Origin: an uncultured Bacilli bacterium | GTDB taxonomy: Bacteria; Bacillota_I; Bacilli_A; RF39; UBA660 | DNA length: 64,000 nucleotides | Reading direction: 5' to 3' | Assembly (NCBI GenBank): GCA_934095965.1 | Contig: CAKOKR010000001.1 | Coordinates: 2,047 to 66,046 of the forward strand | Part shown: piece after piece, positions 33,410-45,830 of the stretch | How positions within the stretch are numbered: position 1 is the stretch's first letter | How the letters are laid out: the number at the start of each line of letters is the position of its first letter | Program-made: the position numbers and the translations under genes | Notes under the pieces: generated by a model | What the model was told of the DNA's origin: nothing | Seen by the model: only the letters and a program-made list of their open reading frames with translations | Databases searched by the model: none

Positions 33410-34168
33410 ATGAAAAAAGTAAAATTATTAGTAACTTCTGCACTAAGTTTTATGCTTTTAACATCAAGTGTAAGTGCTGCTTGTAATTATGAAGAAAAAG
33501 CAAAACTAAATAACGATAGTGCAAATGTTAAAGCCAACTATGAAATTAAGGAAAGGGAACTAACTAAAGATGAATATACAGCACCACCAGATGCTATACC
33601 AACTGATGAACAAGAAAGTTATGTTCCGAAAACTGAATACATCGAAGTAAATATTTTGAATTTAACAGAAAATTTATATGTAACAGTTAAAAATGATGTA
33701 ACTAAAGATGTAAAAACTTATTACTATACTGATACTACAAATGGTAACATTAAATTTAATTGGAATGAAATTGGTACAATTGCTAATTATACAATTAAAG
33801 TAATGGCATCAAGTGCATCAGATTGTAAAGGTCAAACACTTAGAACATTATATTTAACATTACCTAGATATAATGAATATTCAGAATATGATGTATGTGA
33901 TAGAATTCCAGATTATTATATGTGTCAAAGATTTGTTACTTATGATGATTTCAAATATGATGATTTTGCAGAAAATGTAACAAAAGAAATAGAGAATAGA
34001 AATAAAAAAAGTGAAGAAGAAAAAGAAAATAGTAAATGGTATAAAAAGGTTGGTAAATTTGTAAGTGACCACAAAACGGCATTTATTATTGGTGGGATTA
34101 GTTTGGTTGTAGTTGCAGGAGGAGCAACATATATAATAATTAAAAAACGTAGGAGAAGTATAATATGA
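33410..34168 (+). CDS. Secreted surface protein with a C-terminal TM anchor (hypothetical), first gene of the Tad-like operon
   Basis: Signal peptide MKKVKLLVTSALSFMLLTSSVSA. C-terminal TM plus KKRRRS. Confidence 0.5.
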   Translation: MKKVKLLVTSALSFMLLTSSVSAACNYEEKAKLNNDSANVKANYEIKERELTKDEYTAPPDAIPTDEQESYVPKTEYIEVNILNLTENLYVTVKNDVTKDVKTYYYTDTTNGNIKFNWNEIGTIANYTIKVMASSASDCKGQTLRTLYLTLPRYNEYSEYDVCDRIPDYYMCQRFVTYDDFKYDDFAENVTKEIENRNKKSEEEKENSKWYKKVGKFVSDHKTAFIIGGISLVVVAGGATYIIIKKRRRSII

Positions 34169-37100
34169 AAAGAATAGGAAATTTATTATTAGTATCATCT
34201 TTAGCATTAGCATTCGGAGTAAGAAATGTTACTGCTGCAACATTTAGTGATGGAGATAGTCATTCAATATCACATGGAAATTACATAACAATTAATAGCT
34301 TAGATGTAGGAAGTGCTAACTATGGTATTTATAAATATACATTTGATAATGGAAAATATGTAGGTTATTGTGAAGACCCACAAAACTTTTCAGGAAAAAA
34401 TTATTCAGTATCCAGAGAACTCGGAGCAACAACAAATGGTAAAACAATTCAAAACATGGATGCAGGTCTATTAAAAATTATGTCTGAGGGATACAATCAA
34501 TATAATACATCAAAAACAATAAGTGTTGTAACTCCAGAATCAGCACCAAATGCAATATCAATTACTCTAAGTGGTGATGAATTATATGCAGCAACATCAA
34601 TTGCAGTTCGTGCGTATACAACAGGTTTATTTACAACCGGAGCAAAAGGAGCCAAATATCAATCAGCTATAGATATGGCATCAGCTCATGCAAACCTAGG
34701 TGCTCAATGGGCAGCATTATACGGAGAATATACAGATAATGCAACATATGCAAATTGTAATGGAGATAGTAATTGTTATAAAAATAAAGTTGATTATGCG
34801 TGGTTAAATAAAAATGCAATGTTTAATTATTCAGATCCAAACTCAGCATCATATAAAATAATTTATATGGCCCAACAATTATTTAAATCCGGTGTTATGG
34901 ATGCATCAAATAAATCAACAGGTTCGCTACTTACAACAACAGTTAACATTGAATTTAGTAAAAAAACAGAATCAATTAGTAAAACAGATACATCTGAAGA
35001 AAAATATGTTTATGCAACATTAAAAATAGAAAACTTACCAGAAAAATTATCAGATGGTAAGGATGGCAAAGTTGAATTATCAATGCCAACATGTACTGGA
35101 TGTACAATAAATTCATTCGAAGCTCAAGATGGTGGAGATTATAAACAAGTTGGAATTGGTAATAATATAGCACTTTTACTTGAAGCAAAAGATGGTGTAA
35201 GAAGTGGTGAAATTAAATTAAGAATTAAAGTTACTCAAGCTATCCAAGATCAAGAAAACTGTAAAGATGCAACATTAAAAATTGATTATAAATATAATAC
35301 AAATCCTCAATTAACCGGAGCAACATTAAGTGATAAAAGTAATCCGAATTCACAAAGATTCTTTGTTCTAGACAAACAAGAAGGTGACCAAACAGGTTCT
35401 GCTCAAACTAAAATAGGTTGTTCAAAAGCAGCTTGTGATACTGAAATTACTGAACCACTTTGTGATGGAGATGCAATTGCAACTGTTAAAGCTCCAGACA
35501 AAATTAAAAGTTGTGTAATCAACAATGTAGATGATGCTGATAACTCATATCAATATACATCTGGTGTTGATAACAAATATTGTAAAGTTTACTGTAAAGA
35601 AGATTATGCAAAAATACAATTAGAACCAGTAGTTAAAGATATCAAGTGTGGTAGTTACTTTAAACTAACAAGTCATATCGAAGGAAGTAAATCATGTTAT
35701 ACCGGCGGAGAGACTGGAACCGACGCTAGAAATGGTGAAAAGAGTATTGATAAAGATCAATATATTCAAGATGTAATTGATGCACAAAAAACAATGATCG
35801 AAGGATTAAACCTTTATCGTAAAGCAAAACAAGCATTAGCAACAGCATCAGATTACAGTATATCACATGGTTGTGATGGATGTAGTGCTGAATCATGGAC
35901 AAGAACTGGTTCATATGTAGGACCTGTTGTTACAAACATTGACTATGAAGAAGGACTTGTAACATCACAAGAAACTACTCAAGGTTTCTTCTATGGAACT
36001 AAAGAATCAGTATCAAATAATACAAGTTATGATTCTGAAAAAAAGAGATATGTATGTGTATCAAGTACATGTACAAATGGTACAACTGAAGCAGAAGTTG
36101 TTGCTCTAATAAAAGCTGACATGGCAAAAGGAAAAGCAATGATGGAATCTGGATTTAAAGCTTATGAAGCAGCACACACTGCATATAATGCTTGTACGAC
36201 TGGATGGCAAAATAACTTCTTATTTGAACAAAAAATCGGATATTACTATAATGAAAATCGTGGAAACGATGAATACAAGAGTCCATATTATGATATATTA
36301 GAAAGTGCTCAAAATAAAGATTTATATTATCTTGAAGGAACAGGTTCTGCTGCACCAAAATCTACATCTAAGATAGAAATATGGAAAAAGGCAACTGATG
36401 ACAAGATTGAAACAGGTTCAGATTATACATTTGATTTATCAATAGAAAATGGATCAACTGGTAAATACAATTATAAATCAAGTTATGGTGGAACATTTGA
36501 ACCAAGAAATTATACTGTATGTAAAGATCCAGAAGGATCATGTGAAGTAAGAACAGAACAAATTTCTCAAGCAGCATTTGTTAAGAAATATGTTGAAAAA
36601 GAACAAGATTATATAACACCAACAGCATTCTATCAAATAGCAGCTAATGGTAAAATAACCGTTAATAGTGGTTACACTGGAGACAAAGTTCAACTTGAAG
36701 CATTATTCAATAGCTTACCAGTATCTACTAAAACAGTAGGTGGAGGAATATTCAAATTAAATATTGAATGGCTTGGTGAATTCTATGATAAAGATAATGC
36801 CGTTGGAAGACTTATGGATATACCAGGAGTAGCATGGACAGATAGAAGACAAGGTGGAACAACATTTATGGATAGTCCAAAACATCAAGATTCATTTACA
36901 GGTGACTATAAATGTTATTATGAATCTCCATGTAGACCAGATGATTGTCCAAACTGTGACTTCGTTTGTGAAGGTGACAACTGTGATTGGATTGATTGTC
37001 CAGAATGTAAAATAGATTGTACAAATTGTATCTTTGATTTAAATAAATTAAATGTTAATTTCAGAACAATTTCAACAACAAACTTCAATTCAGCTAACAG

Positions 37101-37581
37101 AACATATGGTTATAACTGGATCACATCAAGTAGCATGCAAGCATTACAATTGTTAAATAAGAAAGCTGATGCTACAATTAAAGAAATCGAAGAAGTTAAT
37201 GAAAGTATCTATGACCCAGAAGGTAAAACATCAGATGGTTCAAGTGCACTTGCATTAAGTATTAAATTAACTCCACAAGCAATCAGAGAGTTAAAGAAAT
37301 ACAATGAAAAACATTCAAGTGATGGTGGATACATTAATGACTCATTAACATGTTATGATGCTACAGTTAATGGTAAAACATATAAAAACATCTATTGTTA
37401 TAGTGAAGTAATAGATGACTTAGTAAAAAATTATGAAGTAACAATTCCAGATGGTAAACGTTTAGATAGTGCTACAGCTAGAGCTGCATCACAAAATCAA
37501 AATGGATACTGGGAATTATGGTCTGATAAACACGAATTCATATATAGTGAAAGTGTTATCGGCGGACCTTCATGGAAGTAG
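34165..37581 (+). CDS. Large (1138 aa) secreted Cys-rich protein, putative pilus-associated adhesin
   Basis: Signal peptide MKRIGNLLLVSSLALAFGVRNVTA. More than 50 Cys. The C-terminal module is CYYESPCRPDDCPNCDFVCEGDNCDWIDCPECKIDCTNC. 4-nt overlap with the upstream gene. Confidence 0.55.
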   Translation: MKRIGNLLLVSSLALAFGVRNVTAATFSDGDSHSISHGNYITINSLDVGSANYGIYKYTFDNGKYVGYCEDPQNFSGKNYSVSRELGATTNGKTIQNMDAGLLKIMSEGYNQYNTSKTISVVTPESAPNAISITLSGDELYAATSIAVRAYTTGLFTTGAKGAKYQSAIDMASAHANLGAQWAALYGEYTDNATYANCNGDSNCYKNKVDYAWLNKNAMFNYSDPNSASYKIIYMAQQLFKSGVMDASNKSTGSLLTTTVNIEFSKKTESISKTDTSEEKYVYATLKIENLPEKLSDGKDGKVELSMPTCTGCTINSFEAQDGGDYKQVGIGNNIALLLEAKDGVRSGEIKLRIKVTQAIQDQENCKDATLKIDYKYNTNPQLTGATLSDKSNPNSQRFFVLDKQEGDQTGSAQTKIGCSKAACDTEITEPLCDGDAIATVKAPDKIKSCVINNVDDADNSYQYTSGVDNKYCKVYCKEDYAKIQLEPVVKDIKCGSYFKLTSHIEGSKSCYTGGETGTDARNGEKSIDKDQYIQDVIDAQKTMIEGLNLYRKAKQALATASDYSISHGCDGCSAESWTRTGSYVGPVVTNIDYEEGLVTSQETTQGFFYGTKESVSNNTSYDSEKKRYVCVSSTCTNGTTEAEVVALIKADMAKGKAMMESGFKAYEAAHTAYNACTTGWQNNFLFEQKIGYYYNENRGNDEYKSPYYDILESAQNKDLYYLEGTGSAAPKSTSKIEIWKKATDDKIETGSDYTFDLSIENGSTGKYNYKSSYGGTFEPRNYTVCKDPEGSCEVRTEQISQAAFVKKYVEKEQDYITPTAFYQIAANGKITVNSGYTGDKVQLEALFNSLPVSTKTVGGGIFKLNIEWLGEFYDKDNAVGRLMDIPGVAWTDRRQGGTTFMDSPKHQDSFTGDYKCYYESPCRPDDCPNCDFVCEGDNCDWIDCPECKIDCTNCIFDLNKLNVNFRTISTTNFNSANRTYGYNWITSSSMQALQLLNKKADATIKEIEEVNESIYDPEGKTSDGSSALALSIKLTPQAIRELKKYNEKHSSDGGYINDSLTCYDATVNGKTYKNIYCYSEVIDDLVKNYEVTIPDGKRLDSATARAASQNQNGYWELWSDKHEFIYSESVIGGPSWK

Positions 37582-45444: not shown

Positions 45445-45515
45445 ATATCATAAAAGATTGACTTTACAGCTATTTTAGGGTAAAATAAATGTATACAAAG
45501 GGAGGAGTGTTATTT

Positions 45516-45830
45516 ATGACTTTTTGTACTGATGCACGTGATATTTTCTATACTATAGGAATGTTTCTACTAGTATTTAAAATTGTGATTCCTATTTTAT
45601 TAATTATATTTGGTATGGTTGATTTAGGAAAAGCAGTTATTGCCAGTGATGATAAAGCTGTATCAAAAGCAGCAAAATCACTATTAAATCGTGTTATTGC
45701 TGGTATATGTATCTTCTTCGTTCCACTAATCGTAAGTATTGTATTTAAGATGGTAGGTTCATTTGGAGAAGTTAAAGATCAATTTGATGTTTGTGCTAAC
45801 TGTATTGCTAGTCCAACAACAAAATGTTAG
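45516..45830 (+). CDS. Small 2-TM protein with a Cys-containing C-terminal tail, paralogue B
   Basis: About 45% identical to paralogue A (LGKAVIASDDKAVSKAAKSLL). RBS GGGAGGAG 8 nt before the ATG at 45516. The longer ORF from 45489 lacks an RBS. Confidence 0.45.
   Translation: MTFCTDARDIFYTIGMFLLVFKIVIPILLIIFGMVDLGKAVIASDDKAVSKAAKSLLNRVIAGICIFFVPLIVSIVFKMVGSFGEVKDQFDVCANCIASPTTKC

Follow-up and report, generated by a model that had tools for sequence, protein, structure and literature searches.

The 64,000-nucleotide window analyzed here, a stretch of contig CAKOKR010000001.1 (assembly GCA_934095965.1) from an uncultured Bacilli bacterium, carries on the + strand 15 tightly packed open reading frames (ORFs; g01 to g15) which fill positions 33410-45830. 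The locus probably encodes a highly divergent type IV filament machine, chromosomal and vertically inherited, nearest to the tight adherence (Tad, type IVc) systems and used for adhesion by a walled cell with a single membrane. A CpaF-class motor, a split GspF-type platform and CpaB-like proteins, a set which forms the core signature of Tad machines and is missing in type IV secretion systems (T4SSs), point to a Tad-related filament machine; VirB4 and VirD4 candidates are also lacking among the large ORFs of the window. Adhesion is favoured by the constant presence of a giant adhesin-like partner, by exposed parts that diverge fast next to a nearly frozen motor, and by the role in cell contact of homologues carried by plasmids. 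Membership of Tad proper is partial, as pilin, pseudopilin and peptidase signatures were looked for and not found, and TadZ is unconfirmed.

The 15-gene, one-strand operon described in an initial annotation of this DNA was found again with exactly the same coordinates. Intergenic spacing across g01 to g15 ranges from -4 to 16 nucleotides (nt), with exceptions of 23, 44 and 85 nt, in a window with a G+C content of about 25%. Independent gene calls on related metagenome contigs yield the identical layout, and the g01 to g15 order is kept across 80 related loci (L001 to L080; tblastn of the 15 products), fetched from genomes of uncultured, RF39-like gut Bacilli, which make up the comparison set used below. 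Precomputed Pfam labels on the related contigs are limited to DUF5411, SAF (weak) and T2SSE. With 12 out of 15 products unlabelled, the system is invisible to routine pipelines. Pfam and NCBIfam searches on all 15 products of the window gave nothing significant for g01, g02 and g07 to g13. The operon genes cited below all lie on the + strand.

Motor, platform and CpaB-like proteins

The product of g06 (39594-40703; 369 amino acids, aa) is a secretion ATPase of the CpaF/TadA/VirB11 class, and supplies the TadA/CpaF-type ATPase of a Tad system, as initially annotated. It matches Pfam T2SSE (5.3e-29), and its best matches in the PDB are three CpaF entries (~9e-19), ahead of FlaI, archaeal GspE2 and VirB11. 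Among NCBIfam models, VirB11 (TIGR02788, 6.8e-33), TadA (TIGR03819, 6.8e-31) and TrbB (6.9e-28) all score far under the curated cutoffs, and ComGA (7.6e-23) ranks lower than CpaF and VirB11. The ATPase motifs are intact: GETGSGKT for Walker A, ILLSEVRS for Walker B and STIHS for the His box. The protein is 76-99% identical over the 80 species-level genomes, and relatives occur in at least 569 GTDB genomes. A large protein search with g06, g07 and g13 returned near-identical relatives only (at least 81%, 84% and 76% identity, respectively).

The genes g07 (40716-41621) and g08 (41621-42409) encode the putative first, TadB-like, and second, TadC-like, halves of a GspF/PilC-type membrane platform. 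Neither matches Pfam or NCBIfam, their family profiles have no meaningful match in the PDB, and comparison of the two shallow profiles by hhalign reveals no similarity, fused relatives being the sole link between them. Among 422 relatives retrieved by phmmer with g08 from 1.84 billion representatives, eight proteins of 447-613 aa (P0338, P0342, P0349, P0364, P0365, P0373, P0377, P0386) are fusions, the N-terminal half of which matches the g07 profile (1e-6 to 1e-12) and the C-terminal half g08, forming a PilC/GspF-like two-domain platform in a single chain. By this token g07 and g08 together amount to one two-domain platform cut in two, and relate to PilC/GspF in the way TadB and TadC do. Pfam T2SSF is found in 3 of 46 distant g08 relatives (best 3.2e-5). 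The AlphaFold2 model of g08, built on a diverse alignment, is of high confidence (predicted local distance difference test, pLDDT, 91.5; predicted template modelling score, pTM, 0.74), and agrees in Foldseek with the GspF/PilC/TadB-C family (probability 0.90-1.0, E-values weak). The g07 profile matches over 237 columns (hhalign probability 95.5, E 1.6e-8) a protein of a Priestia plasmid named as type II secretion system F family, in turn recognized by Pfam T2SSF (3.4e-5). Predicted structure, transitive homology and fused relatives support the membership of g07 and g08 in the GspF/PilC/TadB-C family, and the platform is split into two proteins of the T2SSF type as in Tad systems. The TadB and TadC labels of the initial annotation are sustained by these lines of evidence, ordinary hidden Markov model searches showing nothing.

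Two SAF-domain proteins are encoded upstream of the motor. The g04 product (38021-38788), CpaB/RcpC-like and with an N-terminal transmembrane (TM) helix, matches TIGR03177 (3e-9, 36.5 bits against a cutoff of 71), Pfam RcpC (2.6e-4) and SAF (0.019); searching with its family profile retrieves, at 7.9e-37, a Priestia protein annotated as 'SAF domain-containing protein'. The paralogue g05 (38791-39588) matches TIGR03177 (2.1e-10) and, over the 21-bit cutoff, Pfam SAF (5.6e-5, 24.1 bits); it is confined to the closest relatives, being the best-matching ORF in 18 cases only. The profile of the CpaB-like family finds no match in the PDB. Judging from sequence, both are CpaB homologues at the family level and not equivalogs, as scores of 36-40 bits are to be read against the equivalog cutoff of 71. 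The two CpaB-like proteins of the initial annotation are therewith confirmed, and the CpaB/RcpC component of Tad systems is present.

The 329-aa product of g13 (44093-45082) had been taken for a TadZ/CpaE-like protein, a type in which a receiver-like domain is joined to a MinD/ParA-like ATPase. Predicted to be cytoplasmic, it consists of an alpha/beta domain at the N-terminal end and, at the C-terminal end, a domain similar to P-loop NTPases. Pfam, NCBIfam and PDB sequence searches are negative, Pfam scans of each family member included, and all homologues are unnamed. A 'G(I/F)KN(V/I)T(D/E)HAG(A/S)TTL' segment in the alignment resembles a Walker A motif devoid of the Lys (HAGATT in the window). 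The AlphaFold2 model, which features two alpha/beta domains, is weak (pLDDT 62), as a consequence of the poor depth of an alignment made of near-identical relatives only. Foldseek relates the C-terminal domain to SIMIBI NTPases (MMAA/MeaB, 1.2e-4; SRP54/FtsY, MobB, UreG, HypB and ParA), and hhalign detects no similarity to the ParA-like protein of the Priestia plasmid. What stands of the TadZ assignment is a generic SIMIBI P-loop fold with a degenerate Walker A motif, in a low-confidence model; the identity with TadZ is unconfirmed. TadZ-like by architecture only, the modelled protein fits a TadZ-like organiser, which is not a proof.

Candidate filament subunits and the giant protein

Four pilin-like proteins are encoded downstream of the platform. 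The 90-aa g09 product (42495-42767) begins with MKEATG, followed by ELNMTVVTVVAIAAVGAFFYF and a short variable tail with four Cys. In the family, MKEATGEL precedes about 22 hydrophobic residues and a tail of 40-60 aa which contains Cys and varies; by contrast, invariance at positions 1-8 amounts to 97-100% in orthologues from 37 species. The g10 product (42791-43093; 100 aa) is a paralogue (hhalign probability 99.8, E 7e-29) with the same leader, conserved at 81-100%, and a conserved C-terminal C(P/V)(F/Y)KG. Larger, minor-pilin-like proteins are encoded by g11 (43104-43616; 170 aa), in which M-[KR]-E-[AS]-I-G-G is followed by a TM helix and a globular domain, and by its paralogue g12 (43626-44078; 150 aa; hhalign probability 100, E 9e-42). 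The N-terminal pattern common to g11 and g12 is M-[KR]-E-[AS/V]-[I/S]-G-[G/S]-T-W, and a hydrophobic helix follows. Both paralogous pairs thus fit M-[KR]-E-[AS]-x-G ahead of a helix of about 20 hydrophobic residues. A Glu is conserved at position 3 of all leaders, and in g09 and g10 also at position 7. The leaders of the MKE[AS] type pointed out in the initial annotation are real, and much better conserved than could be noted there. Their layout, a short polar leader with a Gly right before the helix, is that of a putative class III signal peptide, and g09 is the candidate major subunit. The g12 product weakly resembles the DUF4320 proteins of the Priestia plasmid and of plasmid pLS20 (hhalign probability 46.8, E 2e-4), which reside at an equivalent position.

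An N-terminus of related type, MKE[SA]YWGYW, is found in the product of g03 (37594-38004), made of a TM helix and a domain of ~110 aa known as DUF5411 (Pfam PF17424, 5.6e-58). Homologues of g03 precede the ATPase in plasmid loci of Priestia (L082), pLS20 (L081) and Virgibacillus (L086), and no solved relative is detected in the PDB with the family profile. The protein is possibly a minor pilin or an assembly factor, and DUF5411 is a marker of this subfamily of systems. In some loci subunits are much longer because of C-terminal extensions: orthologues of g03 reach 380-600 aa in L019, L020, L022, L023, L041, L077 and L078, and orthologues of g11 505-526 aa in L005, L009, L012, L016 and L017. 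These extensions resemble the modular pilins of other type IV filaments.

The giant Cys-rich secreted protein reported earlier is encoded by g02 (34165-37581), and indeed has 1138 aa, 33 Cys and a Sec signal peptide; no anchor motif is evident. A Cys-rich ORF of 720-1842 aa occupies this position in every related locus. Nearly all positional homologues carry the motif YC(I/L/M)DP at about residues 65-95, corresponding in the window to GYCEDP with Cys69; in a 20-sequence alignment of the family Cys69 is invariant and Asp71 nearly so. The adhesin TIE of pLS20 has VYCIDPDKP equally distant from the signal peptide. TIE is known from the literature as a class II thioester-domain adhesin, needed for efficient conjugation and not anchored by sortase; adhesins of this class have a reactive Cys in a YC[IL][DE] context and a partner Gln. 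Thioester or isopeptide adhesins are annotated at the g02 position also in Paraclostridium and Virgibacillus plasmids. Pfam TED is detected in 6 of 20 homologous N-termini (best 2.2e-4), and in L024 (0.0015). The alignment of the g02 family with TIE (p34) by hhalign is limited to 37 columns in the motif region (probability 22.7), and the N-terminal family profile has no match in the PDB. Given the motif and the TED matches of relatives, next to a short TIE alignment and a window protein with no match of its own, the thioester reading is a supported lead and not a demonstration; g02 is a candidate adhesin with a thioester-domain-like N-terminal motif. The stop of g01 (33410-34168) overlaps the g02 start by 4 nt. 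The 252-aa g01 product has a signal peptide, a C-terminal TM helix and a KKRRRS tail, and its gene is present in 65 of the 80 loci (median identity 34%). It is a type I membrane protein, plausibly an anchor or partner of g02.

The constant association of g02 with the machine, its Sec signal peptide and the lack of a recognizable wall anchor also suit a different device, an exporter similar to type II secretion systems (T2SSs), in which a short, piston-like pseudopilus would push Sec-exported g02, and possibly other proteins, through the peptidoglycan with no long pilus being made. Secretion systems are known among type IV filament machines, and TIE of pLS20 gets to the surface without sortase. 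Yet no T2SS-specific component was found, characterized systems of the Tad clade make pili, and the fast-diversifying tails of g09 to g12 suggest exposed filament subunits, so that an exporter appears quite improbable.

The operon ends with g14 (45094-45444; 116 aa) and its paralogue g15 (45489-45830; 113 aa), the paired Cys-tailed proteins with two TM helices of the initial annotation. Both are hairpins of the VirB2/TrbC (T4SS_pilin) type, matching Pfam PF18895 at 0.011 (g14) and 0.0016 (g15). In NCBIfam, g15 weakly matches (0.024) Mbov_0395, a pilin-like conjugal transfer protein of a Mycoplasma integrative and conjugative element. Conserved in the family are a Cys near the N-terminus, the pair of TM helices, DLGKAVISSDDKA as a charged loop, and a tail of the CxxC...C type; PF18895 is found in 19 of 32 (best 2.8e-6), in all cases under the gathering score. 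Copies vary from 1 to 6 in other loci, and some have long C-terminal extensions.

Relationships to Tad pili and to plasmid conjugation modules

Tad/Flp systems (Cpa of Caulobacter, Tad of Aggregatibacter and Bifidobacterium breve) share with the locus a single CpaF/TadA-class ATPase, a two-protein platform of the GspF fold, a CpaB/RcpC-like SAF protein, and small major subunits with minor ones of larger size, the genes of which follow those of the motor; a peptidase gene located elsewhere is allowed, and no secretin is present in monoderms. The RF39 locus differs from them because TadZ is unrecognizable, the platform is too divergent for Pfam T2SSF, and the leader is an MKEAxG of 6-7 residues. 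DUF5411, the giant thioester-like adhesin with its membrane partner, and the VirB2-like two-helix proteins are additional to the Tad set. Com pili of monoderms consist of ComGA, a single two-domain ComGB, ComGC with an (A/G)/FTLxE leader, and ComC. A Com pilus was ruled out on account of the low ComGA score of g06, the split platform, the different leader and the failure to find a peptidase among the window ORFs.

Several observations weigh against a Tad-related adhesion machine. NCBIfam scores of g06 are all below cutoff, with VirB11 slightly above TadA, and g13 is not demonstrably TadZ. The Flp-like pilins and pseudopilins of the initial annotation hold as to architecture only: g09 to g12 match no Flp, TadE or other pilin model (Pfam and NCBIfam), the invariant Gly6 of g09 and g10 is followed by ELNMT, with neither Glu+5 nor Tyr+6, and the G/XXXXEY site typical of Flp pilins (Pfam Flp_Fap) is therefore missing. 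The similarity of g11 and g12 to the TadE/TadF pseudopilins is confined to architecture (short leader, TM helix, globular domain), and class III signal peptides do not usually have a polar N-terminus with a net charge of zero or below, as is seen here. The window g02 itself has no TED match in Pfam, and the candidate position for the thioester Gln lacks the conservation that would be expected. VirB2-like g14 and g15 and the best plasmid matches point to conjugation machinery, and members of the system are known from genes and computation alone. Last, an A24-like prepilin peptidase is absent from the operon, and none is recognized among the ORFs of the 64-kb window screened by TM count.

The lack of a peptidase in the operon had been noticed earlier, and extends to its surroundings. 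The window has three polytopic ORFs only, encoding an ABC permease, a protein similar to Lgt, and a transporter of the MMPL type. No peptidase is found among the variable insertions between g08 and g09 of related loci, and no match was obtained in the flanks of the 80 loci by tblastn with a peptidase-like Priestia ORF, itself devoid of a Pfam A24 match; a TadV/CpaA peptidase of the A24 family was accordingly not recognized in the window or the 80 related loci. In Tad systems, known in Bacilli and Clostridia, the peptidase may be encoded elsewhere (Denise 2019), and its absence from the operon is not exceptional in itself. An invariant MKEATG with neither Glu+5 nor a nearby peptidase raises the question of how pilins would be processed and assembled in this branch. 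The Priestia ORF used as query (L082:1461-1979), located on the Priestia koreensis plasmid NZ_CP061869 5 kb upstream of the DUF5411 gene, encodes a polytopic 'hypothetical protein' of 172 aa, in which ITDVKE and SPGDTKMF are reminiscent of the pair of Asp motifs known from A24 prepilin peptidases. This protein matches nothing in Pfam, has no homologue in the window or RF39 loci, and remains a lead.

Matches to g06 were found by tblastn in 748 of 72,556 plasmid records, all under 60% identity, the best among those listed at 32-34%. The best ones are carried by plasmids of the pLS20 family and by related plasmids that are conjugative or mobilisable. Outside RF39, the locus most similar overall is a stand-alone one of the Priestia koreensis plasmid, in which a 993-aa Ig-like protein, DUF5411, SAF, a ParA-like protein (AAA_31, 8.8e-4), CpaF/VirB11, T2SSF, a g08 homologue and DUF4320 are encoded in this order. 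RF39 profiles hit it at 7.5e-8 (g03), 7.9e-37 (g04), 2e-60 (g06), 1.8e-13 (g07) and 1.8e-16 (g08). Gene order is the same as in the RF39 locus. Differences are a recognizable ParA/MinD-like gene just before the ATPase, in the position of TadZ, a platform recognizable by Pfam and NCBI annotation, and the lack of MKEATG proteins and of g13, g14 and g15 homologues. No T4SS genes are found within 9 kb, and this locus too is uncharacterized.

In plasmids of the pLS20 family, Paraclostridium and Virgibacillus the conjugation operon opens with a shorter module, collinear with the RF39 locus and in part homologous to it (L081, pLS20, NC_015148.1, 5426-13214; L085, 6128-14168; L086, 6035-13817). The module includes a thioester/isopeptide adhesin, small proteins, a DUF5411-like protein, the CpaF/VirB11 ATPase, two membrane proteins of 245-270 aa, DUF4320, 47-58 aa proteins starting with MLDQN(T/A)DR, and a TrbC/VirB2-family or similar two-helix protein; VirD4 and the remaining T4SS genes follow. 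In pLS20 (genes 34-45) these are TIE, DUF5411-like p36, the 'putative VirB11' p37, p38, p39 and the DUF4320 protein p40. RF39 profiles match the modules at 1e-49 to 5e-54 (ATPase), ~1e-7 (DUF5411) and 5e-6 (g08 vs. p39). Collinear order and an adhesin with a YCIDP Cys motif are shared. In contrast, the plasmids lack SAF/CpaB and g13, their small candidate subunits begin with MLDQN(T/A)DR and those of RF39 with MKEATG, and homologues of VirD4, VirB4, VirB6 and VirB8 come next, the whole serving conjugation; the RF39 locus, in a chromosome, is devoid of T4SS genes. The pLS20 literature consulted treats gene 37 as a 'putative VirB11' and genes 36 and 38-41 as being of unknown function, and describes a pilus-less T4SS for which no pilus components are encoded. 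No paper reading the module as a Tad-like filament system was found in the literature searched, and the head of the pLS20-family operon may be an unrecognized module of this kind within a Gram-positive conjugation system. A functional analogy is offered by the thin type IVb pilus of IncI plasmids (R64, TP114), a T4SS-linked type IV filament which displays adhesins and stabilizes mating in liquid; since this is a Gram-negative, T4b-class pilus with canonical pilins and peptidase, the likeness to the plasmid relatives is an analogy only.

The locus could alternatively be a domesticated mating-pair-formation module, a chromosomal remnant of the proximal part of a pLS20-type operon mediating contact between bacteria, with g14 and g15, and not g09 and g10, as key surface subunits. 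The conjugative or mobilisable nature of the plasmids that best match the ATPase, the collinearity from adhesin through DUF5411, ATPase, two membrane proteins and DUF4320 to the TrbC/VirB2-like proteins, the top rank of VirB11 among NCBIfam models for g06, T4SS_pilin in 19 of 32 g14/g15 family members, and the requirement for the sortase-independent TIE in pLS20 conjugation all speak for it. A VirB11-like ATPase and a VirB2/TrbC-like pilin are indeed present, at scores below cutoff, but having them in common with T4SSs is not enough to class the locus as one. VirB4, VirD4 and relaxase genes were not seen adjoining the operon in related loci; ORFs of more than 600 aa in the window are limited to UvrD helicase, the MMPL transporter, g02 and UvrA, leaving none of VirB4 or VirD4 size. 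A complete T4SS was discarded for the lack of VirB4 and VirD4 in the window. Moreover, flanks are conserved across species, as expected from vertical inheritance, the GspF-fold platform and CpaB-like proteins are traits of type IV filaments and not of T4SSs, and the closest plasmid relative, that of Priestia, stands alone with SAF and ParA-like genes. We consider such an origin unlikely; it concerns provenance and target, and is compatible with the mechanism of a Tad-related filament machine.

The claim that the locus is a divergent, possibly undescribed variant of the Tad machinery stands as to divergence. It is not entirely undescribed: Imam et al. 2011 (PMC3244431) listed Tad-like loci of Gram-positives lacking recognizable pilins, and Miller et al. 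2022 (PMC9523054), working on Roseburia, Ruminococcus and Eubacterium, predicted an operon termed 'secretion-related' which encodes CpaF, PilC/GspF and DUF5411 proteins together with one similar to internalins. These loci, common in gut Firmicutes and likewise known from computation only, share with the present one CpaF, PilC/GspF, DUF5411 and an adhesin-like surface protein, other genes being unannotated. They differ in having 8-9 genes vs. 15 and in residing in Clostridia, not in RF39-like Bacilli. The combination of a large secreted adhesin, DUF5411, ATPase and platform which defines the DUF5411-associated CpaF/T2SSF module is found in full in the window.

Conservation, genomic setting and significance

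The nearest relative of g06 (99% identity) resides on scaffold FR903548.1 (L001) of 'Clostridium sp. CAG:609'. Next come metagenome-assembled genomes from human, rabbit, mouse, chicken and ruminant guts, the labels of which read uncultured Bacilli, Tenericutes, Mollicutes or 'Candidatus Onthocola', the latter placed by NCBI in Bacilli incertae sedis. We take the clade formed by the window and its relatives to be the GTDB order RF39. In the assembly collection, 1406 blocks have index entries for a single one of the g13 proteins. Flanks are conserved, with a metallophosphoesterase gene upstream in 49 loci and uvrA downstream in 20; lgt is also found downstream. This synteny indicates that the locus is chromosomal and vertically inherited, and rules out a prophage or a mobile island. 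In some genomes variable insertions (an AAA protein, Rpn-like proteins, polytopic membrane proteins) part g08 from the g09-g15 block.

In 12 genomes with a comparable UvrA, g06 is 86-99% identical and UvrA 82-98%, g06 being equal or higher in 11. Exposed parts diverge: where g06 is 86-95% identical and UvrA of the same genomes 82-92%, identity is 29-52% for g02 and 38-72% for g09 to g12. A nearly frozen motor combined with exposed parts that diverge fast is what selection typically produces in surface organelles. Between the window and L001, identity is 91-100% for the operon genes, 98% for UvrA and 86-93% for upstream flanking genes (30270-33304), so that the window is not the CAG:609 record itself; this gap may reflect either a different strain or a swap of the operon region by recombination.

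RF39 bacteria have, according to the literature, highly reduced genomes and many auxotrophies, and the machine might be a pilus for DNA uptake (competence or nucleotide scavenging), parallel to the Tad/Flp competence pili of Micrococcus and Liberibacter. Tad pili can serve this function, as reported, and a motor conserved as strongly as a housekeeping gene would be in line with it. However, no ComEA, ComEC or DprA-like gene was recognized among the window ORFs examined near the locus, and the constant giant adhesin-like partner and the cell-contact role of plasmid relatives argue for adhesion. DNA uptake is thus a highly improbable function.

The host has a cell wall and uses the standard code, as a PBP5-type D-Ala-D-Ala carboxypeptidase gene lies at 57882-59039 and all ORFs are intact under table 11. 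An Lgt-like ORF is at 50618-51427, and its orthologue in related contigs bears Pfam LGT. Convergent with the operon, g16m (46086-47543, - strand) encodes a membrane-anchored protein of 485 aa with an N-terminal TM helix and a Ser/Thr-rich linker. It has no Pfam or NCBIfam match and is kept beside the operon in 14 related loci; whether it belongs to the system is uncertain. A promoter-like TTGATA-17-TATAAT sequence (42435-42463; 11/12 match) lies in the 85-nt gap before g09, and is possibly an internal promoter for the pilin-like genes. Sites of this type are no commoner than in shuffles of AT-rich DNA, and the sequence is merely suggestive. Control by a riboswitch was rejected, the Rfam scan of the window yielding one tRNA only. 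Other features of the window include a secreted protein with cadherin-like domains (12866-14026), the MMPL/RND-type transporter (18999-22736; 6.9e-54) and an M14 carboxypeptidase-like protein (28647-30158). A ToxN-family toxin gene found between uvrA and lgt in L083 (16459-16950) and L084 (16510-17001) is absent at the corresponding place of the window (50590-50618).

In the Tad-related machine favoured here, a hexameric g06 ATPase of the CpaF/VirB11 class would power the split g07-g08 platform in the membrane, and the platform would hoist the single-helix proteins g09 and g10, candidate major subunits, from the bilayer into a filament. The larger, paralogous minor subunits g11 and g12, perhaps with the DUF5411 protein g03, would prime the filament, the CpaB-like g04 and g05 would form a ring or conduit across the wall, and g13, with its degenerate P-loop, would act as a non-catalytic organiser. 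The filament would carry or position g02, together with g01, so that the cell could attach tightly, and perhaps covalently, to the mucus of the host or to other cells. Of these elements, the data directly support the identity of the motor, the fold of the platform, the CpaB-like proteins, the conservation of the operon, the common N-terminal motif and the adhesin-like motif; a filament, its protein make-up, the display of g02 on it, any processing of the MKEAxG N-terminus and any role of g14 and g15 are proposed.

The superfamily, the general Tad-like nature of the locus and its computationally flagged relatives are already known. The thioester-adhesin-like motif of g02, the VirB2-like nature of g14 and g15 and the collinearity with the pLS20 family add to the initial annotation. 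Literature searches on RF39 and pili or Tad, on DUF4320, and on pLS20 and pilus or Tad retrieved no characterization; nothing in the literature searched describes the RF39 form with its 15 genes, the class of subunits it encodes, or the matching gene order in the 'VirB11' region of conjugation operons from Gram-positives. The system is widespread, well supported and accessible to experiments, with several non-canonical features, and is not a categorically new machine.

A broader proposal, which we hold doubtful as a whole, joins these data. DUF5411 would mark an unnamed monoderm branch of the type IV filament superfamily, common to chromosomes of abundant gut Firmicutes (RF39-like Bacilli, Clostridia) and to the heads of Bacillus and Clostridia conjugation operons, where its ATPase is read as the T4SS 'VirB11'. 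The branch would polymerize a new class of subunits with a short conserved N-terminus (MKEAxG; MLDQNxDR on plasmids), either with no A24 peptidase or with a different processing enzyme, and these subunits would combine with VirB2-like proteins to present thioester-type adhesins. Were this the case, the branch would provide the pilus so far missing from conjugation in Gram-positives, and also the chief organelle with which uncultured gut bacteria of reduced genome attach.

Collinearity with pLS20 makes the idea testable in the tractable Bacillus subtilis: the 'VirB11' region may correspond to a Tad-like filament module deploying TIE, which, if true, would touch on the frequent assertion that conjugation in Gram-positives proceeds without pili. 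RF39-like Bacilli, widespread in human and animal guts, essentially uncultured and with reduced genomes, retain a 12-kb surface machine. A motor as conserved as UvrA and exposed parts that diverge fast suggest that this machine is central to attachment to host or partner cells, and this would bear on how RF39-like organisms might be cultured or targeted.

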